Shown: one piece after another, positions 1 to 13,654 of the stretch
Position numbering within the stretch: the stretch's first letter is position 1
Layout: each line of letters starts with the position of its first letter
Assembly: GCA_903919185.1 (NCBI GenBank)
Contig: CAIXHF010000087.1
Location: forward strand, 18,270-82,269
DNA from: an uncultured Opitutia bacterium
GTDB taxonomy: Bacteria > Verrucomicrobiota > Verrucomicrobiia > Opitutales > UBA953
DNA length: 64,000 bases
Direction: 5' to 3'
The notes under the pieces: generated by a model
Told to the model about the DNA's origin: nothing
Databases searched by the model: none
The model's input: only the letters and a program-made list of their open reading frames with translations
Translations under genes and position numbers: made by a program

Positions 1-6
1 GACGCC

Positions 7-651
7 TCAGCGGTCAGCCAAAGTCAGAAAATTACGGTACAGTTGCAAGCCTTTGACCTGACTTTTCTCGGGGTGAAACTGGGTGGCCAACACCCGCCCC
101 CTGCGGACGCCGCTCACAAAGCGACCCGCGTAGTCCGTCTCGCACCAAACCAAAGCGGGATCGGTCTGGACGACCCGGTAGCTATGTACGAAATAAAAGG
201 GCTCCCCTTGGGCATTAAGGCCGGCCGTCAGGGGGCTCTCGGCCTTAAAAATGGCTTCATTCCAACCCATGTGCGGGATGCGCAGGCCCGGGGTGGAGGG
301 GAAACGGGTGACAACCCCAGGGAAGATGCCCAAACCGGGAACTGCGGCTTCTTCCGAGCGCTCAAAGAGGACTTGCAGGCCCATGCAGACACCCAGGAAG
401 GGTCGGTCTGCGGCAATCCACTCCTTGATGAAGACTTCGAAGTCATTGCGGCGGATACAGGCCATACAATCGGCCATGGCCCCCTGCCCTGGGAAAACTA
501 CGGCATCGGCGCCTTCGGCTGCTTGCGGGGTCGCGGCTAGGTAAGCATCCGCCCCAGCGGCCACCATGGCACGGCTGACGCTACGCAGGTTACCCATGCC
601 GTAATCAATCACGGCGACCCGCGGACGACGGCTAGTCCCAGCGGCTTCCAC
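7..651 (-). CDS. hisH: Imidazole glycerol phosphate synthase, glutamine amidotransferase subunit HisH
   Basis: 214-aa ORF. Class-I GATase motifs: IDYGMGNLRS, nucleophile Cys in LGVCMGLQ, FHPEKS. Adjacent to hisB and hisC on the same strand. Confidence 0.95.
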   Translation of the reverse strand: MEAAGTSRRPRVAVIDYGMGNLRSVSRAMVAAGADAYLAATPQAAEGADAVVFPGQGAMADCMACIRRNDFEVFIKEWIAADRPFLGVCMGLQVLFERSEEAAVPGLGIFPGVVTRFPSTPGLRIPHMGWNEAIFKAESPLTAGLNAQGEPFYFVHSYRVVQTDPALVWCETDYAGRFVSGVRRGRVLATQFHPEKSQVKGLQLYRNFLTLADR

Positions 652-653
652 GT

Positions 654-1277
654 TCAGGCAAGTGTACCCTTGGTGCTCGGAACCCGGCCACCCTGGCGCG
701 GATCGATTTCGACGGCCGCACGCATGGCGCGGGCAAAGACCTTGAACAAGGCCTCCGCGATGTGGTGCGGCTCTTCGCCATACTCGAGCTTCAGGTGCAG
801 GTTACAGGCCAACGCATTGGCTAGGCCTTGGAAGAACTCCCGCACGAGGGCGATGTTGAAATCCTTCACCATGTAATTGGAAATCTCTACTTGGTAGACG
901 AGCATCGCTCGATTGGAGAGGTCCAGGGCGCAACGCGCCAGGGTCTCATCCATCGGCAGAATGAAGAAGCCATAACGGCGGATACCCGCCTTGTCGCCCA
1001 AGGCCTCCTTAATGGCATTACCTAAGACAATACCCACATCCTCGACGGTGTGGTGGTAGTCGACCTCGGTATCGCCGTCGGCCTTGACCTTAAGGTCGAT
1101 TAGGGCGTGGCGGCTGAAGAGCGTCAGCATGTGATCGAAAAAAGCGATACCAGTCGAGATTTCGGAAACCCCCGTGCCATCAAGGTTGACGGAAAGGGTG
1201 ATCTTGGTCTCGGCCGTGTCGCGACGGATAGTGGCTTGGCGGGCGCCGGTGCTCATACCAGAAAAGTCCCTCCGCAC
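654..1277 (-). CDS. hisB: Imidazoleglycerol-phosphate dehydratase HisB
   Basis: 207-aa ORF with IGPD signatures ([41 protein letters not shown]). An alternative ATG at 1256 (MSTGARQ...) is equally plausible. Confidence 0.93.
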
Positions 1278-1293
1278 TAGGGGAATGTCAACC

Positions 1294-2388
1294 TCACCCT
1301 TCGGACCAAGCCTGCGCCGCCGCGAGAAAAGCGTCCATTTCCGCAGCCGTCCCGACGGTGATACGCAGGGCCGACGCGGTCAAAGGATGGTTCGGAAAAC
1401 GGCGGACTAAGATTTTGCGTTCCCGGAAGAAGGCGTAGGCATGCTCACCCGTCGCCGGTGAAGCCGAACGCTGGGCCGAGGCCGGCGTGGCGAGGAGGAA
1501 ATTACCTGACGACGGCACGACCGTCCAACCGAGCGCCTCCAATCCACTGGTCAGCCGCACGCGCTCGGACCGGACCTTGCCGACGGTCTCACGCAACCAG
1601 CCAGTATCCGCTAAAGCCGCGGCCGCCGCGACCTGCGCCAAGCGGTCTAAGTTGTAGCTGTCGCGCACCCGATGCAGAATCGTCGCCAAGCCTGGCGGAC
1701 AGAGCGCATAGCCAGCGCGTAGCCCCGCTAACGCGTGGCCTTTCGAGAAGGTCCGCGTGACGACAACGTTCGCGTGCGTCTTCGGAAGTTCGGCACAATC
1801 GGCGTCCGCAAACGCGGCATAGGCTTCATCGACCACAAGTAAACCGGGAAATGCCCGCGCGAGTTCAGCGACTTTGACCGGCGCGAACGACACGCCCAAC
1901 GGAGCGTTAGGATTAGTGAGAAAGAAAATGGCGGCGCCACACTTGGCCACGGCCGCAACGTCGAAACTAAAGTCCGCATGGATGGGAACCTTCACCACGG
2001 CTGCCCCCTGGGCCGCAGCGAGCACCGGATACAACGAGTAGCTCGGATCCAGCATGCCAATCGGCCGACCGGGACCGGCATACGCGCGGATCAAAATGTT
2101 CAGTAAGTCATCCGACCCGTTGCCCGCCAAGATGTCGGTGGCGGGGAAGGCGTGTAGCTGGGCCGCAGCCTCGCGCAAGGGGGAAGCGTCAGGCGAAGGA
2201 TAAAGACGCAGTGCCGCCCCCTCCGCTGCCACCACCGCCCGAATGGCCGCCAAGGCCAGCGGGCTCGGCGGATAGGGATTCTCGTTGGTGTTGAGCTTAA
2301 CCCAGCCACTACCCTGAGGCTGCTCTCCCGGCGTATAGGCCGCCATGGCCGCGATATGCGGGTTCGGTTCAGGAAGCGCGGCGGACAT
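1294..2388 (-). CDS. hisC: Histidinol-phosphate aminotransferase HisC
   Basis: 364-aa ORF. Class-II aminotransferase with PLP-lysine motif [16 protein letters not shown]. Its ATG (2386-2388) shares one base with the ptsI stop codon (TAATG). Confidence 0.9.
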
Positions 2389-4136
2389 TAGCGGAGCTTA
2401 AGTTTCGTCGCAGAATAGTCGGCCAGTAAGGCCTTGATGGCCGTGCACTCGGACAACGTCAAGGCGCGTTGGGCCAACTGCGTCAACTCGTTCTTGGTCG
2501 AATGGCGGAGCACAAAACGCACCTCGGGGATTGCGGGTGGCGCCATGCTCAGCTCATGCGCACCGAGGCCGATTAACAAAGGCGCCCAGACGGGGTCACC
2601 TGCCAACTCCCCGCAGACCGCAGCCGCGACGCCGTGCTGGCGAGCCGCCTTGAAGATTCGCTCCAGCGTCCGCACGACGGCGGGATGAGCCGGCTCATAA
2701 AGTGCGGAGATGCGCGGGTTACCACGGTCGACGGCCAAAAGATACTGGACGAGGTCGTTGGTGCCCACACTGAAGAAATCGACTTCGCGCGCAAGGTCCT
2801 CCGCCACCGCAGCGACCGAGGGAATCTCAATCATAGCGCCCAGACGGATACGCTCCTGGGGCACAATACCTTCGGCGGCTAACTCAGCAGCGACCGACCC
2901 AAGCACCTCCTTCGCGCGACGGAATTCTTCAATCCCGGAAATCATCGGGAACATCACCGCCACGGGACCCAACGCGGCGGCACGCAGGATTGCGCGGAGC
3001 TGCGGACGGAAGACATCGGGGCGATCTAAGCACAGCCGAATCGCGCGATAACCCATGAAGGGGTTGGCTTCATCGTTGAGGTCGCCCAAGCGCTTATCGC
3101 CCCCTAAGTCGAGGGTACGGAAGGTGACCAACCGGCCCCTAGCCTCCCGGACAACCTCCGCGTATTCCGCATATTGCTCGGCTTCCGTCGGCCAGGCATC
3201 TAAGCGCAAGTAAAGGTTCTCGGTGCGATACAGGCCCACGCTTTGCGCACAGTAAAGACGGGCGTCTTCGAGGTCCTCGGGGCCACCGATGTTAGCCTGT
3301 AAGGCGAAGCCTTCGCCGTCACTGGTGACGTCAGGCAAGGCAATCTCGAGCATGACACGGTCGCGGCGGCGGCGGATGGCGAGCTCATGATCGCGATAGC
3401 CCTCTAACGTCGCGGCGGTGGGGTTGATGACCACCGCCCCCGTCTCGCCATCGACCAGGATGATGTCGCCTTCCTGAACGGCGTCCATCAAGCCCTTAAC
3501 GCCGACGACGGCCGGAATCTCCAGCGAGCGAGCCATAATCGCCGAGTGTCCAGTGCGGCCGCCTTCTTCCGTCACGAACGCCAATACACCGTCCTCCGGC
3601 AAACCCGCGGTCTCCGAAGGTGTTAGGTCACGGGCGACGACAACCTGTTGACGGGCAGCCATCGCCGCATGGGCTGGCCGCGTCCCCAACAGATGGTGCA
3701 TCACGCGGCTGGTGACATCGCGGATGTCGGAGGCACGCTCCCGGAGAAAGTCATCCTCCATGCGCTCAAAGATGTCGATGTAGCGCTGGACGACTTCCTG
3801 AAAGCAGAACTCAATGTTGAAGCCGCTGGAACGGACTTCCTTGCTGACGTCGTCGATGAGCGCGACGTCGTCGAGAACCAGGAGGTGCGCGTCGAAGATA
3901 GCGGCCTCCGATTCACCCAAACTCTGGGCGACTTCCTGCCGGAGCTTGGCGATTGCCTGGCGCGTAGACTCTAGGGCCAACTCGAAGCGGCGCAGTTCGG
4001 CCTCAACGTCTGGCACCTTCTGGCAGGAGACGATAGCCATCCCCTGCAACAGCAGGTAGACTGGACCACGGCCGACGCCGGGGGCGGCGGCGGTGCCTTG
4101 GAGTCTAATCTCCGGCCTGGAGGATTCGGCCTGCAT
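2388..4136 (-). CDS. ptsI: Phosphoenolpyruvate-protein phosphotransferase (PTS Enzyme I)
   Basis: 582-aa ORF. Phospho-His motif GGRTGHSAIMARSLEIPAVVG. PEP-utilising C-terminal motifs FFSVGTNDLVQY and AAVCGELAGD. Confidence 0.9.
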   Translation of the reverse strand: MQAESSRPEIRLQGTAAAPGVGRGPVYLLLQGMAIVSCQKVPDVEAELRRFELALESTRQAIAKLRQEVAQSLGESEAAIFDAHLLVLDDVALIDDVSKEVRSSGFNIEFCFQEVVQRYIDIFERMEDDFLRERASDIRDVTSRVMHHLLGTRPAHAAMAARQQVVVARDLTPSETAGLPEDGVLAFVTEEGGRTGHSAIMARSLEIPAVVGVKGLMDAVQEGDIILVDGETGAVVINPTAATLEGYRDHELAIRRRRDRVMLEIALPDVTSDGEGFALQANIGGPEDLEDARLYCAQSVGLYRTENLYLRLDAWPTEAEQYAEYAEVVREARGRLVTFRTLDLGGDKRLGDLNDEANPFMGYRAIRLCLDRPDVFRPQLRAILRAAALGPVAVMFPMISGIEEFRRAKEVLGSVAAELAAEGIVPQERIRLGAMIEIPSVAAVAEDLAREVDFFSVGTNDLVQYLLAVDRGNPRISALYEPAHPAVVRTLERIFKAARQHGVAAAVCGELAGDPVWAPLLIGLGAHELSMAPPAIPEVRFVLRHSTKNELTQLAQRALTLSECTAIKALLADYSATKLKLR

Positions 4137-4186
4137 CTGCAGAACAGAAGATTGGCCTAAGGCAGAGAAGCAAGGCGGATAACCGC

Positions 4187-4690
4187 TTAAGCCTCGTTCG
4201 AGCCCGGATCTTCCATGGGCTTGAACATATCGGGGATCGTCAAAGTAGGCAGGGCCATCTCGGGCATCTCATCTGGCATCACTTCCGCGACCACGGCGAG
4301 TGGCATGGAGCCGGCAGACGGGACGATCATACCCTCAGCCGAGGCTTCTTCCGCCAAGGCGTCCTCAACATAGAGCATCAGGCCACTGTATTCGGCCGGC
4401 AAGGTCACCCGCAACTGGACGAACACGAGGGCAAGGACGCAGGCATGGGCAAAGATTCGGCCCGCGCGCTGAGCGAAACGGGCGAGGCCCGCGACCGCCT
4501 GCGTCGCGTCTAAATCGGCCCGACCACGGAGGAAAGCCATCTGGGCCTTATGCAAACGAACACGGGCGTGAAAGCGCTGGCGGATTTCGGTGGAAGCCTG
4601 CAGGGCATTCCGCAGACGCAACACCTGCTCACGGGAGGCGGTACCGTCGAGGTAGCAAATAATCAGCGACTCCAGTTCGGCGTTACTCAT
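4187..4690 (-). CDS. Putative anti-sigma factor (single-pass membrane protein)
   Basis: 167-aa ORF. Its start overlaps the sigma gene stop by 4 nt. It has an N-terminal helical segment (LIICYLDGTASREQ), one hydrophobic helix (IFAHACVLALVFVQL) and an acidic/Met-rich tail. The call rests on position only; no family was recognised. Confidence 0.5.
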   Translation of the reverse strand: MSNAELESLIICYLDGTASREQVLRLRNALQASTEIRQRFHARVRLHKAQMAFLRGRADLDATQAVAGLARFAQRAGRIFAHACVLALVFVQLRVTLPAEYSGLMLYVEDALAEEASAEGMIVPSAGSMPLAVVAEVMPDEMPEMALPTLTIPDMFKPMEDPGSNEA

Positions 4691-5277
4691 TCGCGGAATT
4701 CATCCCCCATGAGTTGACGTAAGGCTTCGCGGGCACGGTTGATGCGGCTTTTCACGGTGCCAATTGAGAGGCCAAGCTCTTCGGCAATTTCCTCGTACGA
4801 CTGGTTGCGGATGTTGCGCATCGTTAGAATACGAGCGTGTTCTGGCTTCAATTGTTCCATGCACTCGGCCACTTTTGTAACGAATTCGTTATGCTCGGCT
4901 TCGTGGCCAGGGCCCTGGGAACCGTCCGAGAGGATGTCGTGCAGGGTGGCACCGGGATCCTCCCCGAGGTCCGCATCGAGGGACATGGACTGGTCACGCT
5001 TCCGCCGACGCCAGTACCAGTACCGATTACGAGCCAGATTCGTGCCAATTTGGTGAATCCAAGTTGAAAAAGTGGCCGTCCCGCGGAAGGAAGCGAGGAC
5101 CCGGTGGGCGCGAATAAAGGTGTCCTGCGTAATCTCCTCGGCATCCTGCCTATTACGAAGCAACGAGAAGACCTTGGCAAAGATTCGCCCCTGGTACCGA
5201 AGGACCAACTCGTTGTACGCCCCGAGGTCGCCATTGCGGGCGCGCTCAAGGGCGGACTGGTCGGCTTCAGTTTCCAT
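4687..5277 (-). CDS. ECF-type RNA polymerase sigma-70 factor
   Basis: 196-aa ORF. Region 2 reads EEITQDTFIRAHRVLASFRG...FSTWIHQIGTNLARN. The region 4 HTH reads QSYEEIAEELGLSIGTVKSRINRAREAL. Confidence 0.88.
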   Translation of the reverse strand: METEADQSALERARNGDLGAYNELVLRYQGRIFAKVFSLLRNRQDAEEITQDTFIRAHRVLASFRGTATFSTWIHQIGTNLARNRYWYWRRRKRDQSMSLDADLGEDPGATLHDILSDGSQGPGHEAEHNEFVTKVAECMEQLKPEHARILTMRNIRNQSYEEIAEELGLSIGTVKSRINRAREALRQLMGDEFRE

Positions 5278-5377
5278 CGTTTAGGGGTGGCTTTAGGGCG
5301 GGTATTTCCTGACTATGGTGCTGACATTAGGGGAGATATCAACTGCTGTCTTCAATCCCCAACCTCCTTTAGGAACC

Positions 5378-7096
5378 ATGTTCACCTCCAGCAAAAAAAA
5401 GACCCCGTTTCGATGGGTCAACTGCCTGAACGGCCAAAAGGGTTCGGCCGACAGCCTCCCGGCACGTTTCCCCCTCCCTTCCGCCAACCCCGCCCTAGGT
5501 ATTTCGGCGTCCGCAGCCGGGCTCTTACTGGAAGCCACCTCGGCGGCACCCGTCTTGGTGAATGGAGCCCTTCTGCGCCCCAAGACGACCATCACCGAAA
5601 CGTCGACGATCCAACTCGAGGACGGGCTTTTCGTGGTTTCGGGGAACGAAGATGACCCCTTCAACTCCGTCCAAACGAATTCGTGGGTCCTGTTCGATGC
5701 AACCACCGGCGACCTGCTGGGCGAGCTACCACCCCAAAAACTACTGGAGTATGCCGCTAACCTCGGCCGGGCGACCGATACACTGGCGTGCACACCCGCC
5801 GGCCTCGAAGTCGGCTTTAAACTTTCGCAGATCGCGGCGCTGCTCACCGTACGCGAAGAAACCGAAGCCAAACCGGCGGCACCGTCCGCCCTCACGGCGG
5901 AACAAAACAAAGGCGCCCATCTTTGCCCTGTTTGCTGGACGCGCTTCGACGCCGGTGATGCCTTGAGCGTCGCTATCCACGAAGACCTCCGCGGCGACCC
6001 CATCCTGGGGGCCGACGCACGCCTACGTTTCCAACCCACGCGTTTCAACGACCAGGGCCTCGCCCTTGACCCGATGGGCTTAGCCTGCACCGACCTTGCC
6101 TGCCCCCACTGCCGACGCCAACTGCCGCCCGGCTACTTGGACATGCCCCACCGCATCCTCTCGGTAATCGGCGCGCCTAGCGCCGGCAAGTCCTACTACC
6201 TCGCGGTCCTGACGCACGTCCTCCAAGACCGGCTGCCCGGGGATTTCGGCCTAGCCTTCAAGGACGGCGACCCGAGCGGCAACATGCTGCTCAATCAAAT
6301 GCGTAATACCCTCTTCTCGGCCGCCACGCCCGAAGACGCCCTACTCGGTAAGACCGCACTGGAAGGCGCGACTTACGAAAAGCTGCCTCGCCTCGGGCGC
6401 ATGGTCTCCCTGCCCCGCCCATTCATCTATTCACTAGCCCGGCCCTCGGCGAGTCGCGACGAGACGTCGATTGTGCTCTACGATAACGCGGGGGAACACT
6501 TCGAACCCGGCATCGACATCCACGACTCGCCGGGCGCGATGCACGTCGCCAACTCCGCTGGCCTGCTCTTTCTCTTCGACCCGACGGCCAACGCTCGCTT
6601 TAAGGCTAAGTTAATCGGCGTAGATGACCCACAGTTAGCGATCAAAGGCCGCATCGACCAACAGGATAGCATTCTGTCCGAGATGGAGACCCGTATTAAG
6701 CGCGTTCTCGGACTCGCCCCTAGCCAACGCATCGCCACGCCACTGGCCTTCGTGGTCGGTAAATGCGATACTTGGCAATTCCTCCTGTCCTCCCCGCTCG
6801 AGCCTGTAGTGAGCGCCGGCAAACTCAACCCCGAGGCCGTGCGCCGAAACTCCGACCGCGTCCGCACCGTCCTCGTCAGCCTTTGCCCTGGTCTCGTGGC
6901 GACGGCCGAAACGCTCGCCAGTGAAATCTGCTACTTTGCGGTCACTTCCTTCGGCCACCAGCCAACGGTTCTCGCCACTGGCCCGAATAAAGGCCGCATC
7001 GCCCCCGACCCCCAGCGCCTCGCGCCCGCCCACGTCGAAGAGCCCGTCTACTGGCTCCTCCATCGCTCGTCCCCTGAACTGCTCCCCAGCCGCTAA
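5378..7096 (+). CDS. Zn-ribbon-containing Ras-like (TRAFAC) GTPase, uncharacterised family (operon gene 1)
   Basis: ORF 5315..7096. I prefer the ATG at 5378, which leaves about 100 nt of divergent promoter space; 5315 is the alternative. CxxC pairs lie at 5924-5935 (CPVC) and 6101-6112 (CPHC). G1/Walker A is GAPSAGKS at 6170-6193. G3 is DNAGE at 6482 (compare Ras DTAGQE). G4-like is VVGKCD at 6758 (compare Ras VGNKCD). The N-terminal approx 180 aa are possibly FHA-like (VLVNGALLRPKTTITETSTIQLEDGLFVV). Confidence 0.7.
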   Translation: MFTSSKKKTPFRWVNCLNGQKGSADSLPARFPLPSANPALGISASAAGLLLEATSAAPVLVNGALLRPKTTITETSTIQLEDGLFVVSGNEDDPFNSVQTNSWVLFDATTGDLLGELPPQKLLEYAANLGRATDTLACTPAGLEVGFKLSQIAALLTVREETEAKPAAPSALTAEQNKGAHLCPVCWTRFDAGDALSVAIHEDLRGDPILGADARLRFQPTRFNDQGLALDPMGLACTDLACPHCRRQLPPGYLDMPHRILSVIGAPSAGKSYYLAVLTHVLQDRLPGDFGLAFKDGDPSGNMLLNQMRNTLFSAATPEDALLGKTALEGATYEKLPRLGRMVSLPRPFIYSLARPSASRDETSIVLYDNAGEHFEPGIDIHDSPGAMHVANSAGLLFLFDPTANARFKAKLIGVDDPQLAIKGRIDQQDSILSEMETRIKRVLGLAPSQRIATPLAFVVGKCDTWQFLLSSPLEPVVSAGKLNPEAVRRNSDRVRTVLVSLCPGLVATAETLASEICYFAVTSFGHQPTVLATGPNKGRIAPDPQRLAPAHVEEPVYWLLHRSSPELLPSR

Positions 7097-7104
7097 CGTT
7101 TTCC

Positions 7105-9237
7105 ATGCCCCTGCAACTGATCTTCACCTCCGCCCCCCGCGGACTTGTCGCCGGACGTTCCGGCTTCTGCACCGTCGCTCGGCATGCCTCGCTTTCGGAA
7201 CGACTCACGCAGCAACTCGAAGCACTGGGCACACCGCACGACGCCGCCGAGGGGGCGACCTTCACCTTCCGTCGGCTCGAAGCTGGCAGCCAAACTTGGT
7301 ATGTGCTATCGCGTTTCGTCGCCCGCGGGCTTGACTATTCGCAACGCGATAATCGCCTCGCGCACCACGTGGTATTCACCGCCGAGGAAGCCGCTGTCCT
7401 CCCGCCGCCCGCGGCACTCGCCCTCCGCTGGAATGACTGGAAAGATACTTGGACCGAAGAGCCGACCTGGCTTCCGGAAGATGCCCGGCCGCTCCCACTC
7501 GCCTCACATCCCGTACTCACGCCGGCCGCTGGCTGGCGTGAATTCGCCGGCACCGGCGCTAAGGCTGCATGGCTGGTCAACGCCACCGGCGCCGCTTCGG
7601 TGTCGTTGCTAAACCCGCCGAACTCCGCGCAACTACTCCGCTTACTCGCGGAATCCTCCGCCTTGCTCGGCCGCGCCGCTTGGTCCGCCACCTTCACCAC
7701 TAACGCCGCCAAGACCGGCGCCGATGGCTTCGATTGGGCCGTGGGTTTCGCCTCGGGACGTCCCACCATCGACCTCGCCCAAGCCGCGCAGCTCACCGCG
7801 CCCACGGGTGAACTAGCCCGCATCGCCGCTACCGGCGCAGGTGCGACCGCCCCCGCTTCCGCTGGCCCAACGGCTTCCGCGCCGCGCCGAACCAACTCTG
7901 CCAGCGCCCCCGCCACCGCCTCCAACACCGTCACGATTGCAGTCGTTAGCCTCCTCGTGCTCGTCGCCGCCGGCCTCGCCATTGCTTACTTCAGTAAACC
8001 CGAAAAGAAGGTCGTCGAGACCACTAAGCCTACCCCACCGCCCATTGACTCGACCGCGGCCGATGAACTCCTCAAGGCCAACCGCGCAATCAGCGATGTC
8101 GATAGTTTCATGGCCCGCAATGACTTTGTCGCCGCCGGCAAACTGTGGCTCGAGAGCTGCAAACTTTCGCCGACCTTTGCCGCCCGCTACCGCGACCAAT
8201 ACTTGCCGCGCCTGAAGTCGAAGTTCGCAGAGACGACCGCGGCCAGCCTGCTGGGCCGACTCGAAAGCCCGACCGCGACCGCCAACCGTAAAGGCATGCT
8301 GGAAATCGCCGAAGACGCGGCCGAAGCGCTCCGCCTTGGGACCGCCCTCGAAGTCACGAAAGGTGCCGCCTGGGAAGAACTCACGCGCATCCAAGCCCGG
8401 GCCCAGATGGTCGGCGCCTTGGACGTCCGACCCGTCATCCTAACCCAAGGCGAATGGCTAACGGCCGACCTCGGACCTAACTCGCCTTCGACCGCCGAAT
8501 TCAAACTCAACATGGCCTCCGCGGAAAAAATCGGTCGATTCATCGACACCACCGGCGCCAACAAAAACACGGTAGTCAGCGCCCGTATTCGCCTGCTACC
8601 GCTAGACTCCTTCCATGCCCGCGAAGAGAAGACTAAATACCAGTCCGCGGAAATCCGGACGGGCAGCCAAGCCAATTGGATCGAAGCCACAAGCAAATCC
8701 GGTCGCCAACCCATCGTGATCGGCGTGGGCTCCCGCCTGAACACGGTGACACTGAACTTCGCCGACAACTCGGCCGCGCAGCTCCGGGACACTAACCAGT
8801 TAATCGAAATCGAATTGCCCGATGGGTCACACCAGACCATCGCGCTCATCGCCAACGTCAAAGCCCTCCGCCCACTCAATCTGGGCCTCGCCGCCCTGAG
8901 GTCGGACGTCGACACCGGCGTGGTCCATGCAGCGGCCTGGGCTGAACCGATTTTGAATTCATTCATCGCCTCCACTGGCTCACTCGGACTCTACCCCGCT
9001 GGTCATGAGTTCCCTGATCGCGACCTCGCCTCAATCCGCGCTACCAAGTCCCTGCTCGATACCGATCTCGTCCGCCTCGAGCGGAAGTCCGGCCCTGGTG
9101 CTCCCTCCTACGATGAAGTCAAAGCCCGCCGCAGCGCTTTCACGGCACAAGATTTCGTCAAAGCCGGCGCCCCTTGGAGCCTCCGAACGGTTTCACCTCG
9201 CGGTGAAGAGGGCCTCCTGCTCGTCGAATTCCGCTAA
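7105..9237 (+). CDS. Large single-pass membrane protein with N-terminal GTPase-associated-protein-like domain (operon gene 2)
   Basis: 710-aa ORF starting 8 nt after gene 1. The N-terminus reads MPLQLIFTSAPRGLVAGRSGFCTVA...GLDYSQRDNRLAHHVVF. An Ala/Pro/Ser-rich linker follows, then one TM helix (VTIAVVSLLVLVAAGLAIAYF, about 7927-7992) and an approx 410-aa helical plus beta-rich C-terminal domain. Confidence 0.7.
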   Translation: MPLQLIFTSAPRGLVAGRSGFCTVARHASLSERLTQQLEALGTPHDAAEGATFTFRRLEAGSQTWYVLSRFVARGLDYSQRDNRLAHHVVFTAEEAAVLPPPAALALRWNDWKDTWTEEPTWLPEDARPLPLASHPVLTPAAGWREFAGTGAKAAWLVNATGAASVSLLNPPNSAQLLRLLAESSALLGRAAWSATFTTNAAKTGADGFDWAVGFASGRPTIDLAQAAQLTAPTGELARIAATGAGATAPASAGPTASAPRRTNSASAPATASNTVTIAVVSLLVLVAAGLAIAYFSKPEKKVVETTKPTPPPIDSTAADELLKANRAISDVDSFMARNDFVAAGKLWLESCKLSPTFAARYRDQYLPRLKSKFAETTAASLLGRLESPTATANRKGMLEIAEDAAEALRLGTALEVTKGAAWEELTRIQARAQMVGALDVRPVILTQGEWLTADLGPNSPSTAEFKLNMASAEKIGRFIDTTGANKNTVVSARIRLLPLDSFHAREEKTKYQSAEIRTGSQANWIEATSKSGRQPIVIGVGSRLNTVTLNFADNSAAQLRDTNQLIEIELPDGSHQTIALIANVKALRPLNLGLAALRSDVDTGVVHAAAWAEPILNSFIASTGSLGLYPAGHEFPDRDLASIRATKSLLDTDLVRLERKSGPGAPSYDEVKARRSAFTAQDFVKAGAPWSLRTVSPRGEEGLLLVEFR

Positions 9238-9243
9238 GCCCGC

Positions 9244-12207
9244 ATGCAGACAGAACGCCTCATCGCCCGTATCCGCGGACAGCTCGAAGTCGGCACGCCC
9301 GACCTCGAGGCGCGCTCGCTGGCCGGTGAATACGCGACGCTCTGCCAACGGACCCGCGAACGGCTGGAGCAATGTGCGGCCCTCATCCGTACCAGCAACG
9401 ACCACGCCGCTCTCCAAGTAGCCGAATCGGAACCCGACCTACTCGGCCTCTGTGCGCTTCTGAGTTTCGCCGATTCGGAACGCTGGCAAGCGCTCTGCCG
9501 TGAACGCGGCCTCCCGACCGGCTTTCCGCTCGACGATCAGCACATTCTCGCGGTCGAAAGCCTCTACGGTAAAGTGATTGGCGAAAACCATCCGCTCTAC
9601 CGCGACTACCGGGAGGCCATGCGCCAACGTGACGAAGATCGCGCCCTAACGGTTCTGCGCTCAATCGCCCGCATTAATCCCGATGATCCGACGGCACGCT
9701 CCGAACTGACGCGCCTCTCCAGTAAGTTCCTGCGGGAAGCGCTGGGAAAGGTCCTGCAACTCTTCGACCAAGGCTCACCCCGCGAGGCCGTGGAGTTGAT
9801 GAATCGGATGGAGCGCTTCGGGGCACTGGTACTGACCAACGAGCCACGCTGGGATGACGCCCTCGCGCGTCGCATCGCTCATCTTCGCGACAAAGCCCAC
9901 GAGCAGATTCGGCTCCTCCTTCCCGAAGCCCGCGCTGCCCGCAACGACGACCAATGGGAAGCCTGCGCCAATCACTTAGGACGAATCCGTACGCTGGAAC
10001 GAGACCATCTCGTCAACCTCGAGGCGGCGAACTTGTCGGAACTTACCACGCTCGAAACCTGGGCAGGCGAACTCGCCGCCACGGCTGAAGCCGAAGCCTC
10101 CCAACGGGCCGCCCTAGAAACGCTGACGAAAGAATGGGATATCCTCCGCCAAGAGGCTAGCCGCGGCTCCTCGCCCGCCCTACTGCTTTCACGGCTTAAC
10201 GTTTGGATCGAAAAGGCGACGCCCCTCGCCGACCGACTGCCCGAAGGAACCGTGCGCGAAGCCCGCGGCGTTCGCCAACTGACCCGGGCTCGCCTCAGCC
10301 GTCGGTACGCCATTTTGACGACTTCGTGGGTCACTGGCCTGCTCTGCTTGCTACTCGGCGCCTACTTGTGGCACGCCCAAGAGGGCAAGGCACAGGAAGC
10401 CAACGATCGCTTCACGGAAATCCAAGCCCTGGTTGAGCGCTGGGAAAACAACGGTGCCATGAATAAACTCGAGAAGCTTAAGAATGACTACCCCCTGTTC
10501 GTCGCGAGCGAAGAAATCAAGACGGGCACCGAAGCACTCCGGCGGCAAGCCCTCGCCCAAGCCGAAACGGAACTGCAACTTAAGACCGAGGCCATCTACC
10601 TGGAACAGCGCCGCAAGGAAGGCATCAATCTAACAAATTTCGCCCCCGTCACCCAACGAGCCAAGGCGTACGTCAGCGAACTCGCTAAGGTTGGCCCCGC
10701 CGCCACCGCACGGTTGCAAACCATCCTACCTGACCCAGCCGCCATCCTCGCTACCTGCACCAAGGTCAGCGAAGAAAGCCGCAACGACCTCTTGGCGTTG
10801 CGTCGTCAACTCAAAGTCGCCCTGGGTGAAGACGAGACCGTCGTCAACCTGACCCGGGCCAACGATGCCCTCGAAAAATTACGCGCCTTACTAACGACCT
10901 TGAGCGCCGCTGGCCTCAAGGATCTCGACGAGGCCTTCGCCGAAACTGACCGTGCGACCCTCCGCCTCGAGGCCGACCAGAAATCCGTCAACGCGGTTCG
11001 CGGGCTGGCAGATTCCGGCGACCTTAAGGCCTACCTCGACGCCTTGGCGGCCGTCGCCGCGACCGCGAAGGAAAATTCCGACCTCCGCAAGCGCGCCAGT
11101 TTCATCACCGAACGCGCTGAGGCCCTCCGCAACCTTCCCCGCTCCACCCTCGCCCCCCGGGTGGGAGCGATGTGGGATGGCTTGGCGAAGTCCGATGCCA
11201 CCGGCCTCTTCCAACCCGACGAACTCCTCGCTTCCGAAGATAAGGTCATCCGCGCGCTAGCCGACGACAAGACGACCACACGCTTGCGTAAATATAACGT
11301 CCGCCAGCATAGCCGCGGTGGCGATCCCCGCATCATGCGCCAGGTCTTCATCGCCAGCGAAATCTCCATACAGCGCAACCTCATCAGCGGTGGAATCGAG
11401 ACCGTCCGTACCGCCAAGGAACTCAGCCGAGACGGCACCCTGGTCGAGTCGTCCTGGAGCTGCCGCGAATTCAACTCCGCTAACGGCGAAACGACAAAAT
11501 CCGGGGAGGACCTTTTGGAAGGCCTCGTGATTCCCGAACTCGACTACCTGCGCCAGTTCAGCCGCTTCTACGACCTCAAGGCCGGCAAGATGTCGGAACC
11601 CCTCCTGCGCAAACTCGACCTCATCCGCCGAAGCCCTACCCCGCACCTCGAACTGCGGGCTTACCAGATGCAGGAGCTCTTCAAGGTGGCCAGCCAACGA
11701 CCCGAGGCTTGGGGCCTACTCTACTCGCCCTCCGCCCAACGCGACGCCGACCAACTTCGCCGCATCACGCAAAATGCGCTGAGTCCTTACGATTTCCTCT
11801 TCAAGGATAAGTGGGCCGACGTGCAACTGGAGCTACGTGCGTTCCTGACGCGCCAGACGGGGGCGACCTACGCCGAGGAAGCGCGCTTCTGGCGGCGCAC
11901 GCTGGGCGAACTGCAATCTAAGAAGTTAATTTTTGCTGGCACCATGGGCCGCGATGGGAAGCCCGTGCTGCGCGAGGTGCTCAAGAACGCCGCACTCTAC
12001 GGTCTTGATAGCGAAGGCAAGCCCGCCCAACTCTTCCGCGCCGATGCGACGGGCAACCTGACACGCGTCAACGAGCCCGCCCTCCTCACGCCGCTGCTCC
12101 GCCTGTCGGGCACGGTCAGCGAAGCCGCCCAAGCGGCCGGTATCCCGGCCGGCCTCACCCCGCCCGACGGCGGCTGGGAATCCATCCTCCAAGGACGCGA
12201 CCTCTAA
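9244..12207 (+). CDS. Very large single-pass membrane protein, helical/coiled-coil rich (operon gene 3)
   Basis: 987-aa ORF starting 6 nt after gene 2. It has an approx 350-aa helical, TPR-like N-terminal region, one TM helix (YAILTTSWVTGLLCLLLGAYLW, about 10306-10371), a long coiled-coil-like stretch and an alpha/beta C-terminus. No family was recognised. Confidence 0.7.
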   Translation: MQTERLIARIRGQLEVGTPDLEARSLAGEYATLCQRTRERLEQCAALIRTSNDHAALQVAESEPDLLGLCALLSFADSERWQALCRERGLPTGFPLDDQHILAVESLYGKVIGENHPLYRDYREAMRQRDEDRALTVLRSIARINPDDPTARSELTRLSSKFLREALGKVLQLFDQGSPREAVELMNRMERFGALVLTNEPRWDDALARRIAHLRDKAHEQIRLLLPEARAARNDDQWEACANHLGRIRTLERDHLVNLEAANLSELTTLETWAGELAATAEAEASQRAALETLTKEWDILRQEASRGSSPALLLSRLNVWIEKATPLADRLPEGTVREARGVRQLTRARLSRRYAILTTSWVTGLLCLLLGAYLWHAQEGKAQEANDRFTEIQALVERWENNGAMNKLEKLKNDYPLFVASEEIKTGTEALRRQALAQAETELQLKTEAIYLEQRRKEGINLTNFAPVTQRAKAYVSELAKVGPAATARLQTILPDPAAILATCTKVSEESRNDLLALRRQLKVALGEDETVVNLTRANDALEKLRALLTTLSAAGLKDLDEAFAETDRATLRLEADQKSVNAVRGLADSGDLKAYLDALAAVAATAKENSDLRKRASFITERAEALRNLPRSTLAPRVGAMWDGLAKSDATGLFQPDELLASEDKVIRALADDKTTTRLRKYNVRQHSRGGDPRIMRQVFIASEISIQRNLISGGIETVRTAKELSRDGTLVESSWSCREFNSANGETTKSGEDLLEGLVIPELDYLRQFSRFYDLKAGKMSEPLLRKLDLIRRSPTPHLELRAYQMQELFKVASQRPEAWGLLYSPSAQRDADQLRRITQNALSPYDFLFKDKWADVQLELRAFLTRQTGATYAEEARFWRRTLGELQSKKLIFAGTMGRDGKPVLREVLKNAALYGLDSEGKPAQLFRADATGNLTRVNEPALLTPLLRLSGTVSEAAQAAGIPAGLTPPDGGWESILQGRDL

Positions 12208-12210
12208 GCC

Positions 12211-12846
12211 ATGGCCAAGCCCGACCAATTCCGCCTACGCTGGAAAGGTGCCGTCACCGGCCCCTTCGCCTTGGCACGTATCAGTGAAATGCTCCGGGCA
12301 GGCGAAATCAGCTTGGTGCACAATATCGAAGTCAACGACGCTTGGCTCACCATTCGTGATTACTTCCGGACAATCGGCCTCAACCGCGGCTCGCTACTCC
12401 CACCGATTGACCCGTTCACTGGGCGTGACGGCCCGGACCTCCCGCCCCCGCCACCAGGCGCAGCTGGCACCATCCACGCACCCGCGATACCCGCGTCATC
12501 GCCCGCGTCCGCCGCCGGCGAAGCACTGGAGCGCAACGTCCGCGAAGGGTATCTCTGGTGCGGCTCGACGTTCCTCTTCCCGCCACTCTTCGCGGTCGTC
12601 GTGCCGCTCTGGGAAAAGACGGTCGGGGCGCTCCCATCGTCCTCAAAATATACGCTGTTCATCTTCGCGACGCTGCTCGGCTGTAGCCTCCCGCTGTGGT
12701 TAGTCCAACGGGTGGGCCGCCAAATCAGCCAAGAAGGCTTGGACGAAATCTCCCAGGCCCAAAGCCGCCTCTGCCTCGTTTTAGCAGGCCTAGGTACGGT
12801 TTTCTGGCTTTTTATGTTCGGGTTCCTCGCCAAGCCCAGCCTCTAA
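12211..12846 (+). CDS. GYF_2 (DUF4339)-like domain membrane protein (operon gene 4)
   Basis: 211-aa ORF starting 3 nt after gene 3. The N-terminal GYF-like segment reads FRLRWKGAVTGPFALARISEMLRAGEISLVHNIEVNDAWLTIRDYF. A Pro-rich linker (PDLPPPPPGAAG, 12442-12459) follows, then three hydrophobic helices. Confidence 0.7.
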   Translation: MAKPDQFRLRWKGAVTGPFALARISEMLRAGEISLVHNIEVNDAWLTIRDYFRTIGLNRGSLLPPIDPFTGRDGPDLPPPPPGAAGTIHAPAIPASSPASAAGEALERNVREGYLWCGSTFLFPPLFAVVVPLWEKTVGALPSSSKYTLFIFATLLGCSLPLWLVQRVGRQISQEGLDEISQAQSRLCLVLAGLGTVFWLFMFGFLAKPSL

Positions 12847-12904
12847 CGGACGCAATCGGCTTGACGCACCGCCCCTCTCCGCCTGACATCACGACCCGGT
12901 TTAC

Positions 12905-12981
12905 GGTAGCGTAGCTCAGTTGGTTAGAGCGAGGGACTCATAAGCCCTAGGTCGGCAGTTCAATTCTGCCCGTTACCACCA
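12905..12981 (+). tRNA. tRNA with CAT anticodon (elongator Met or lysidine-type Ile2, not initiator), CCA encoded
   Basis: Hand-folded cloverleaf. Acceptor GGTAGCG/CGTTACC (one G-U pair). D arm GCTC-AGTTGGTTA-GAGC. Anticodon arm AGGGA-CTCATAA-GCCCT, with CAT at 12939-12941 and a 31-39 A/G mismatch. T arm GGCAG-TTCAATT-CTGCC. Discriminator A, then CCA. The G1-C72 pair argues against an initiator. Confidence 0.85.
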
Positions 12982-13040
12982 AACCGGGGATTTTAAACCC
13001 AAGAAGTGCCGCTTCCCTGAACTCGGACTTCACTGGGCAT

Positions 13041-13078
13041 AAAGAAAAGAACCCTAGCCAAAGACTAGGGTCCTTTCA
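13041..13078. terminator. Bidirectional intrinsic-terminator-like hairpin between tRNA (+) and rsfS (-)
   Basis: Stem ACCCTAG (13051-13057) / CTAGGGT (13065-13071) with loop CCAAAGA. An A-rich run (AAAGAAAAGA) lies on the left and CCTTTC on the right. Confidence 0.5.
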
Positions 13079-13096
13079 CCGCCCAAGACGCTCGTC

Positions 13097-13654
13097 TTAA
13101 GCCTTCAGGATCGCCGCAACTGGCACGTCGAGACCATCCTTCCACAAGGACTCCATACTGTAGCTTTCACGAACGTCCGGACGGAAGATATGCACCAAGA
13201 CGTTGAAACCATCAACGACGGTCCAACCGCTTTCCGACTGAGACTCGCTAGCGCGGGCTGGTGAACCGACCTCGTCCAAGGCCTTCTCGACCTCGATGCG
13301 CAAGGCCCGGAGATGCGGGTCGGAGTTACCGGTGGCGATGACCATGTAGTCAGCGACCGAGGAGAGTTGACCGAGCTCAAGGACGCGGATACCGAGGGCC
13401 TTCTTGTCATCAAGGGCCTTCACGACAGCGACGACGAACGGTGGGACTTTGGTCGGCACAGCCTTCACGACGGCGACCTTGGGAGTTTCCGAGCGAGTCT
13501 TGGCCTTGCTGCCCTTGACCTTCGCCACTGGGCGACGGACCGGCTTTACAGGACCACGCGCCTTCACTGGGCCACGCGACTTGGGCGCGGGCTTGGCTGC
13601 TGACTTGCGGGCAGGCTTCTTGAAAGGCGTTTTCTTTTTCTTAGGGGCAGGCAT
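13097..13654 (-). CDS. rsfS: Ribosome silencing factor RsfS with Lys/Pro/Ala-rich N-terminal extension
   Basis: 185-aa ORF. The C-terminal approx 110 aa match the RsfS/iojap pattern (VADYMVIATGNSDPHLRAL...GWTVVDGFNVLVHIFRPDVRESY). The first approx 75 aa are a basic low-complexity tail (PAPKKKKTPFKKPARKSAAKPAPKSRGPVKARGPVKPV...). Confidence 0.85.
   Translation of the reverse strand: MPAPKKKKTPFKKPARKSAAKPAPKSRGPVKARGPVKPVRRPVAKVKGSKAKTRSETPKVAVVKAVPTKVPPFVVAVVKALDDKKALGIRVLELGQLSSVADYMVIATGNSDPHLRALRIEVEKALDEVGSPARASESQSESGWTVVDGFNVLVHIFRPDVRESYSMESLWKDGLDVPVAAILKA

Follow-up and report, generated by a model that had tools for sequence, protein, structure and literature searches.

A probable GAP1-N2-type DO-GTPase cassette inherited beside an ECF sigma/anti-sigma pair in Opitutae, a candidate receptor-coupled membrane switch

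In the genome of an uncultured freshwater member of the Opitutae (Verrucomicrobiota), four closely spaced genes on the plus strand, here named g1 to g4, start next to a divergently transcribed extracytoplasmic function (ECF) sigma factor gene and its putative anti-sigma gene, and the whole block is embedded between housekeeping genes. Which kind of system do these genes encode, and does it serve immunity or the cell envelope? We studied the block within a stretch of 64,000 nucleotides (nt) of contig CAIXHF010000087.1, called the window below, and compared it with loci fetched from other genomes, which carry L-numbers. The window protein g2 is 100% identical to the NCBI protein NTX41_08800. The block very probably belongs to the GAP1-N2-type DO-GTPase systems, as a member fixed in its lineage, because g2 matches GAP1-N2, homologues of g1 match DO-GTPase2, g1 has the Walker-B motif DNAGE, and the GTPase gene precedes the GAP1 gene. 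Such 'GTPase-centric systems', composed of DO-GTPases and GAP1 proteins, were described computationally by Kaur, Burroughs, Iyer and Aravind (eLife 2020, PMC7159879) as predicted immune or conflict systems; a Walker-B glutamate is a family feature in that description, and the order is GTPase, then GAP1. As the best explanation of the complete locus we propose an inner-membrane, receptor-coupled GTPase switch that is tied to the ECF sigma/anti-sigma pair, and for this reading as a whole the balance between right and wrong is even.

The GAP1-N2 domain (PF20013) was found in g2 at amino acids (aa) 4-128 with an E-value of 1.3e-20 (74.3 bits, cut-off 24), and it is present in 23 of 23 g2 orthologues. 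A sequence-only reading of the window had noted a likeness of g2 to GAP1 proteins, which is borne out by this match. Since g2 begins 8 nt past g1, the GAP1 gene lies directly downstream of the GTPase gene. The N2 domain is followed by a GAP1-M-like region (aa ~144-245), for which the window protein gave no direct Pfam match; GAP1-M (PF20014) was detected in 1 of the 23 orthologues (7.6e-4). In hhalign, aa 1-245 of g2 aligned to aa 1-280 of the GAP1 protein of locus L089, in which Pfam places GAP1-M at aa 149-235, with a probability of 99.7% that is dominated by the N2 part. GAP1-C was found neither in the window g2 (Pfam, E<=1) nor in the 23 orthologues (E<=0.1).

The soluble g1 protein is built from a divergent FHA-fold region (aa ~14-100), a linker, a four-cysteine zinc ribbon and a DO-GTPase2-type GTPase domain, in this order. 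It scored 25.0-25.1 bits against Pfam DO-GTPase2 (PF19993), which has a cut-off of 27. The same domain is precomputed for most of the close g1 homologues (63-97% identity) and matches 63 of 78 distant representatives at E<=1e-3, with a best value of 1.4e-9. The GTPase motifs G265-x4-G270-K271-S (GAPSAGKS), D369-N-A-G-E373 (YDNAGE) and K462-C-D464 (GKCD) are invariant or nearly so across sets of 42 and 78 relatives, the Walker-B Glu being kept in at least 90%. With a Walker A motif, a Glu-bearing Walker B motif and an NKxD-type motif, g1 has what defines a TRAFAC-class P-loop GTPase. The previous description of g1 as a Ras-like GTPase was therefore correct as to the GTPase, while 'Ras-like' is too specific for a TRAFAC-class DO-GTPase2 relative. 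Its separation from the housekeeping GTPases also held: Era, Der, HflX, FeoB and Obg were rejected as candidates, as no NCBIfam family matched at E<=1 and Pfam lists DO-GTPase2 and DO-GTPase1 only. No second GTPase paralogue was found when g1 was compared by tblastn with the whole window, which returned g1 alone, and orthologous loci are likewise single-copy.

The four cysteines of g1 are arranged in two CPxC knuckles, C183/C186 and C242/C245, which lie 55 residues apart and are invariant or nearly so in the relatives; they are predicted to form one zinc site with a long insert rather than two ribbons. For the N-terminal ~100 residues a divergent FHA fold is predicted, in agreement with the FHA relationship suggested earlier. 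The N-terminus of the window protein gave no direct Pfam FHA match. The g1 family profile, on the other hand, matches about 20 FHA-domain PDB chains from at least seven different proteins (E 0.006-1.7), including Ki-67, KIF13B, Rv0020c, EmbR and Rad53 (E 0.006-0.5), and full-length g1 relatives show weak FHA or Yop-YscD_cpl matches at aa 14-97. Among the 78 distant GTPases the N-terminus is clearly FHA in 17 (best 1.2e-19) and GYF_2 in 21. When aa 10-105 and the family consensus were aligned by eye and inspected for phosphothreonine-binding residues, only the Asn-Gly pair (VNG) was found, the Arg, Ser and His not being conserved. Other N-terminal modules seen in distant g1 relatives are TIR_2 (L087/L088, protein P0407), a protein kinase, an FGE-sulfatase and a fused GAP1.

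The remaining proteins of the operon are membrane-anchored. A hydropathy scan gave one transmembrane (TM) segment each for g2 and g3, three for g4 and one for the anti-sigma protein, a topology that is kept in all orthologues checked, so that the earlier view of two bitopic membrane proteins stands. In g2 the M-like region is followed by a linker rich in Ala, Pro and Ser, a TM segment (aa 276-294), a periplasmic helical bundle (aa 316-438) and beta-sandwich domains (aa 444-710). AlphaFold2 models this periplasmic part with block-mean pLDDT (predicted local distance difference test) values mostly of 80-95. Foldseek searches with the g2 model against PDB and BFVD returned nothing at E<=1e-3, the weak Ig-like matches having best values of 8.7e-3 (PDB) and 1.4e-3 (BFVD). 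The length of g2 is mostly 709-710 aa among the homologues listed.

In g3, helical repeats make up the cytoplasmic domain (aa 1-356); beyond the TM segment (aa 357-375), the periplasmic region is again helical and includes two small beta domains, at aa 682-759 and aa 895-954. Searches of Pfam, NCBIfam and PADLOC gave no match for g3. The AlphaFold2 model (mean pLDDT 76) predicts alpha-solenoid structure at either face of the membrane, and Foldseek against PDB found nothing at E<=1e-3, with generic TPR-like matches reaching 2e-3. A likeness to the anti-sigma factor DdvA (8rot_A; E 0.047, probability 0.25) was dropped as generic helical similarity. Relatives were found by comparison with distant loci: g3 aligns over aa 26-927 with the gene that follows GAP1-N2 in the metagenomic locus L092 (99.8%, E 3e-30), and aa 25-181 of its N-terminal domain align with the third gene (1209 aa) of L089 (91%). 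These matches suggest that g3 is a member of an unnamed family, the third constant partner of GAP1-N2 in bacteria of the Planctomycetes-Verrucomicrobia-Chlamydiae (PVC) group. No name for this family appears in the available portions of Kaur et al. 2020. Among the homologues listed, g3 measures 979-988 aa.

The g4 protein is composed of a GYF_2-like N-domain (aa ~7-52), the peptide PPPPPG (aa 78-83, nt 12442-12459) and three TM segments within aa 115-205. The GYF domain that had been assigned to g4 could not be recovered from the window protein by itself, which has no Pfam match at E<=10, but it is supported through the orthologues: GYF_2 was detected in 6 of 22, with a best E-value of 3e-5 and 4.3e-5 in L083 from a cultured isolate, and the alignment conserves WKG..GP...L..G.I.L.H. 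A single GYF-like domain, and not a pair, is seen in this way. The g4 profile found no match in PDB. PPPPPG, the kind of ligand bound by GYF domains, directly follows the GYF-like domain in many lineages; two copies of it are found in L049, L051 and L054, and none in the gut lineages.

The positions of all features are collected in the table. The six open reading frames (ORFs) reported from the sequence alone, their coordinates, the spacings of 8, 6 and 3 nt between g1/g2, g2/g3 and g3/g4, and the 4-nt overlap of the anti-sigma start with the sigma stop were all reproduced, except that the start of g1 was moved. The true start of g1 is most likely at 5378, because homologues are nearly all 565-590 aa long (the range of nearly all full-length homologues among the matches listed) and the conserved start ATGTTCACC is located there. 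The extension 5315-5377 (63 nt), which crosses the conserved intergenic block, is probably an ORF-calling artefact. From 5378 the distance to the start codon of sigma is 100 nt. No terminator-like site was found on the plus strand within 5378-12846, which is consistent with a single g1-g4 transcript.

Table. Features of the block in the window, and occurrences of the ECF-type motif in loci of gut lineages
Feature	Position	Strand	Remarks
Anti-sigma	4187..4690	-	ORF, 167 aa; putative membrane anti-sigma
ECF sigma	4687..5277	-	ORF, 196 aa
Conserved intergenic block	5322..5345		TGACAT-N10-ATCAACTG, between the sigma and g1 starts
g1	5378..7096	+	572 aa; longest ORF 5315-7096
g2	7105..9237	+	710 aa
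g3	9244..12207	+	987 aa
g4	12211..12846	+	211 aa
tRNA-Met (CAT)	12905..12981	+	ARAGORN; Rfam RF00005, 66 bits
ECF-type motif TGAAAC-N16-CGTCTAA	L066 1446-1473, L070 8825-8852, L072 9844-9871, L079 9750-9777, L084 9900-9927	-	

To see how the block is inherited, we turned to its neighbourhood and its relatives. As judged from the orthologous loci, hisH/hisB/hisC/ptsI flank the block on the left, and genes for RsfS, a NadD-type CTP_transf_like protein and LpxI on the right; the flanks named earlier, hisHBC-ptsI and tRNA/rsfS/nadD, were thereby matched. The tRNA-Met gene lies on the same strand 58 nt past the g4 stop and forms the right border of the block. Genomes of about 55 species of the Opitutae have the cassette between hisHBC-ptsI and rsfS-nadD-lpxI (loci L005-L061 and L065, one locus per GTDB species). 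The four genes are found with near-constant length in all freshwater Opitutae loci and in a shortened form in the gut lineages. The gene arrangement is far beyond chance; dozens of genomes repeat it with every gene in place, and the quartet is co-conserved as a block. One deeper freshwater lineage has an additional gene between g4 and rsfS (L003 17311-19581, L004 9485-11755), and its 756-aa product combines PATR repeats with a PEP-CTERM anchor.

DO-GTPase/GAP1 systems are present in hundreds of species: a scan of one genome per GTDB species returned at least 593 genomes with a relative. The best 80 of these all belong to the Opitutae, Opitutales or Puniceicoccales. At 50% identity the systems account for ~1,400 protein clusters. 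Median identities to the window proteins, taken over 28 complete loci, are 93% for sigma, 72% for g1, 71% for PtsI, 65% for NadD, 58% for RsfS, 55% for g3, 50% for g2, 48% for g4 and 45% for anti-sigma. The ratio of non-synonymous to synonymous substitution rates (dN/dS), determined by the Nei-Gojobori method on unsaturated close pairs with pairs of dS > ~1 excluded, is 0.05-0.07 for g1, 0.09-0.11 for g2, 0.10 for g3 and 0.13 for g4, compared to 0.03-0.09 for the enzymes encoded in the flanks. The periplasmic domains showed no excess in dN/dS, and no sign of diversifying selection was seen in the putative sensor parts. Thus g1-g4 and the sigma pair are co-inherited across the class Opitutae under purifying selection, and the pair proved to be co-conserved with the quartet, as proposed before.

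We also considered a mobile island, which was rejected in view of the flank-like G+C content of the block, the lack of plasmid and phage homologues and the position of tRNA-Met downstream rather than at an island junction. A g1 homologue was found in 0 of 72,556 plasmids and 0 of 50,697 phage records. No island-junction repeat or integrase was seen at tRNA-Met, and no integrase was noticed among the called genes in those loci whose gene tables were read. The GC skew is -0.13 to -0.23 across the plus-strand operon (5500-13000) and near zero over the minus-strand housekeeping genes (1-5000).

Is the sigma pair a partner of the operon or only its neighbour? The sigma protein contains regions 2 and 4 only (Sigma70_r2 48 bits, Sigma70_r4_2 58 bits, also Sigma70_ECF in Pfam), scores 90.7 bits against TIGR02937 (cut-off 42.9) and is predicted to be a standard ECF sigma factor. 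The protein encoded behind it comprises an N-terminal helical anti-sigma-like domain, a TM segment (aa 79-97) and a short, acidic, low-complexity extracytoplasmic tail. Matches to zf-HC2 are weak, both in the window protein (E 0.86) and in the 6 of 9 orthologues that have one (best 0.0023), and the anti-sigma profile found no match in PDB. Behind sigma, the cultured Puniceicoccaceae isolate also encodes a protein of this layout. Translational coupling to sigma, the one TM segment and the weak zf-HC2 matches in orthologues indicate that the 167-aa protein is a probable membrane anti-sigma factor. Within the region, conservation is highest for sigma (median identity 93%, compared to 71% for PtsI; dN/dS 0-0.03) and lowest for the anti-sigma gene (45%).

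Sigma is found upstream of g1 in divergent orientation in 75 of 84 loci, and the exceptions are mostly contigs that end at g1. Gut Opitutales and the cultured Puniceicoccaceae Marseille-Q1082 keep this adjacency; in them the other neighbours are all different, g1 is 42-48% identical, g2 has ~440 aa and g4 ~135 aa. In the gut lineages an ECF-type motif, TGAAAC-N16-CGTCTAA, is located 38-67 nt upstream of sigma and occurs nowhere else in the fetched loci. Upstream of g1 the same lineages have an A-tract and, as read by eye, a sigma-70-like TTGCCA-N17-TGAAAT/GATAAT, and for this reason the operon does not look like a simple target of the adjacent sigma factor. In an alignment of 16 orthologous regions from freshwater Opitutae, TGACAT-N10-ATCAACTG is the sole well-conserved intergenic block, with TGACA invariant; on the reverse strand it reads as TTGAWA-N17-AnCATA, pointing to sigma. 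A scan of 4100-13200 of the window with the sigma-70 consensus gave no site, and the intergenic block does not pass it either. A relaxed search for the ECF motif in the window was at chance level, with 7 matches compared to 6.2 expected.

From these data we consider it rather probable that the block encodes a receptor-coupled inner-membrane GTPase switch; a functional tie between the GTPase module and the sigma pair is proposed more tentatively, at slightly below an even chance. In such a switch a cue from the periplasm or envelope would be sensed by the parts of g2 and g3 outside the membrane, and g1 would be bound, and its GTP/GDP state controlled, by the cytoplasmic GAP1-N2/M part of g2 together with the g3 solenoid. 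Assembly or release of the complex would depend on the modules for peptide binding, namely the FHA fold of g1 and the GYF domain of g4, for which the PPPPPG of g4 itself may be an internal ligand. The output would reach the ECF sigma factor, most plausibly via the anti-sigma protein, because the short external tail of the latter looks unable to sense alone.

A different explanation is an anti-phage or conflict system, in which the external domains of g2 and g3 detect the invader, the GTPase and GAP1 set a threshold, g4 is a membrane-damaging effector for abortive infection, and the ECF sigma factor acts as an alarm or induction circuit. The block does belong to the family for which Kaur et al. 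proposed a defence model, and a fusion of GYF with a TM-rich region is among the variable components they list. Relatives carry effector-like modules, such as TIR_2 on the GTPase, a GYF-trypsin fourth gene in Oligosphaeraceae, and fusions to FGE-sulfatase and kinase. Control of a defence system by an ECF sigma/anti-sigma pair has a reported precedent in DdvS/DdvA and CRISPR4 of Myxococcus (PMC6061681). However, there is no effector turnover, as every Opitutae locus has this one set of four genes, their position is fixed among housekeeping genes, and dN/dS stays between 0.05 and 0.13 without rising in the domains that may act as sensors; in addition, a PADLOC match, plasmid or phage copies and an FNIII sensor protein are all missing. 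A fixed place, purifying selection and invariant content are not the signature behind the conflict interpretation, and the evolutionary pattern thus lends no support to the conflict or defence half of what the sequence-only reading had inferred. As far as is known, the hosts, which are Opitutae metagenome-assembled genomes and one cultured Puniceicoccaceae, are unicellular planktonic or gut cocci. This too speaks against defence, as the published association is with a multicellular habit. We regard defence as unlikely, though still deserving serious attention, and whether the module has a housekeeping or envelope role rather than one in immunity is to us an evenly balanced question. The operon could instead be a plain member of the sigma regulon: the ECF sigma factor would sense envelope stress through its own anti-sigma by regulated proteolysis and drive g1-g4, and the module would repair or remodel the envelope without feedback on sigma. 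A divergent arrangement of sigma and target is common for ECF sigma factors, a conserved intergenic block lies between both starts, and the pair is adjacent throughout the class. Yet the ECF-type motif of the gut lineages is present upstream of sigma only, while g1 has sigma-70-like -35/-10 elements with an A-tract, and the relaxed motif search in the window did not exceed chance, which makes this explanation improbable. Finally, the adjacency of sigma might be accidental and the module structural or morphogenetic, as a membrane scaffold or in division or polarity; a parallel would be the GAP1-N2 neighbourhoods linked to tubulin and HSP70 in Actinobacteria and Firmicutes. The long alpha-solenoid of g3 would provide a scaffold on either side of the membrane, the inheritance is core-like, and an assembly of cytoskeleton-like complexes was noted for many GAP1-N2 neighbourhoods (PMC7159879). 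No tubulin, HSP70 or vWA gene was found in or near the operon, though, and the adjacency of sigma outlasts the rearrangement of all other neighbours, so that we hold a morphogenetic role to be very improbable.

The receptor-coupled switch tied to the sigma pair, which we prefer, has to be weighed against several observations of its own. The literature search found no experiments on DO-GTPase or GAP1 proteins and no paper besides Kaur et al. 2020, and every mechanistic step is consequently inferred. An adjacency that is conserved within one class could be inherited gene order. The relatives of g1 that bear TIR, trypsin-linked, kinase or FGE-sulfatase modules have what is typical of conflict systems, the window g1 itself stays 2 bits below the Pfam cut-off for DO-GTPase2, and the cytoplasmic half of g2 is poorly modelled (AlphaFold2 pLDDT 30-50). 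Three Puniceicoccales metagenome-assembled genomes do not have the full set beside g1 (g1 only in L062 and L064, g1 and g2 only in L063), their g1 orthologues being 47-53% identical; the module can therefore decay, split or be lost and is dispensable in some lineages. Five relatives from outside the Opitutae with a GAP1 or g3-like context were fetched (L085, L089 and L091-L093). Sigma lies beside the GTPase gene in 0 of the 4 that show upstream DNA, L092 being uninformative as it starts 98 nt before the GTPase gene, and sigma coupling is accordingly not a property of the whole family. The promoter readings in the freshwater lineage are ambiguous.

In a more specific version of the preferred reading, the Opitutae would have turned the GAP1-N2/DO-GTPase module into the sensory input of a near-invariant ECF sigma factor: the nucleotide state of a cytoplasmic GTPase would be controlled by two bitopic receptors, and this GTPase via its FHA-fold and GYF partners would gate a minimal anti-sigma factor. 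We consider this version rather unlikely. If true, it would mean GTPase-gated control of an ECF sigma factor and a first physiological role for a family predicted only as an immune system. To our knowledge, gating by a GTPase is not among the known controls of ECF sigma factors, which are regulated proteolysis, partner switching, phosphorylation and C-terminal extensions. The locus thus points to a possible new input route to these factors. The paper on the 2021 ECF reclassification mentions neither GTPase, FHA and GYF nor Verrucomicrobia. The sole published view of the family is that of diversifying immune systems of multicellular prokaryotes, and the Opitutae version contradicts the signature expected from it; the module may act in envelope signalling rather than in defence. 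As the sigma pair offers a measurable readout and there is at least one cultured carrier, Puniceicoccaceae Marseille-Q1082, the question of immunity versus envelope signalling can be tested.

How does the block compare with known systems? A known anti-phage defence system was rejected, as PADLOC-DB 2.0 gave nothing meaningful for g1-g4, the best match having an E-value of 0.04 over 25 residues. In the conservons of Streptomyces (CvnA-D), a membrane sensor is complexed with a Ras-like GTPase and accessory proteins. The block resembles them, as they are generally described, in having a membrane receptor-type protein and a small GTPase in one operon; it differs in the GTPase family and in the absence of a histidine-kinase-like sensor and of roadblock/LC7, and no relationship in sequence was detected. 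With sigma/anti-sigma signalling of the RpoE-RseA or SigW-RsiW type, and with the defence-linked case DdvS-DdvA, it shares the translational coupling of the two genes, one TM segment in the probable anti-sigma and, in the gut relatives, an autoregulatory-looking ECF promoter upstream of sigma. What sets it apart is the short, low-complexity external tail of the probable anti-sigma and a GTPase module as the conserved neighbour, with no gene for a protease or known sensor partner alongside.

The locus L089 of Oligosphaeraceae (Lentisphaerota) is similar in its four-gene order, its homologous GAP1 N2+M protein, the shared N-terminal domain of g3 and a fourth gene that opens with GYF. Its layout, GYF-GTPase, GAP1-N2+M, 1209-aa protein and GYF-trypsin, is a trypsin version of the four-gene layout. 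Unlike in the window, the N-terminus of its GTPase is GYF and not an FHA fold, the fourth gene ends in a trypsin-like peptidase and has no TM segment, no sigma factor is nearby and the flanks are others.

The N2-type systems of Kaur et al. contain zinc-ribbon GTPases, GAP1 proteins that are often fused to a C-terminal TM segment and an FNIII-repeat protein, and in one variant, listed among the variable components, a pair of GYF domains is fused to a TM-rich region (PMC7159879). They occur in verrucomicrobiae and other PVC bacteria with predicted action at the membrane, and the family is associated with a multicellular habit. One or two N-terminal zinc ribbons are present in 60% of the DO-GTPase family, usually two in N2 systems, and 38% of the systems have two paralogous GTPase genes (PMC7159879). 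The hallmark of conflict was seen in a constant core joined to parts that differ even among closely related organisms, the FNIII repeats evolving rapidly, and many GAP1-N2 neighbourhoods suggested the regulated assembly of cytoskeleton-like complexes (PMC7159879). The word 'sigma' is absent from the text of that paper, and one supplement contains nothing on it. The block had been put forward as an undescribed system, a claim that fails, as it belongs to the kind described in 2020, which includes the GYF/TM-rich variant. Like that variant it has a zinc-ribbon TRAFAC GTPase with a Walker-B Glu followed by GAP1-N2, a GAP1-TM protein with external domains, a GYF-like TM protein and a host from the Verrucomicrobia. 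Unlike the N2 systems described there, it has one GYF-like domain and a single GTPase, GAP1-C was not detected, g1-g4 gave no fn3-type Pfam match and the cassette no FNIII-repeat protein, no variable effector is present, inheritance is strictly vertical in a housekeeping context, and an ECF sigma/anti-sigma pair is a conserved neighbour. What is new here is a vertically fixed cassette without FNIII protein or variable effector, linked to an ECF sigma factor and equipped with an unnamed partner family, that of g3.

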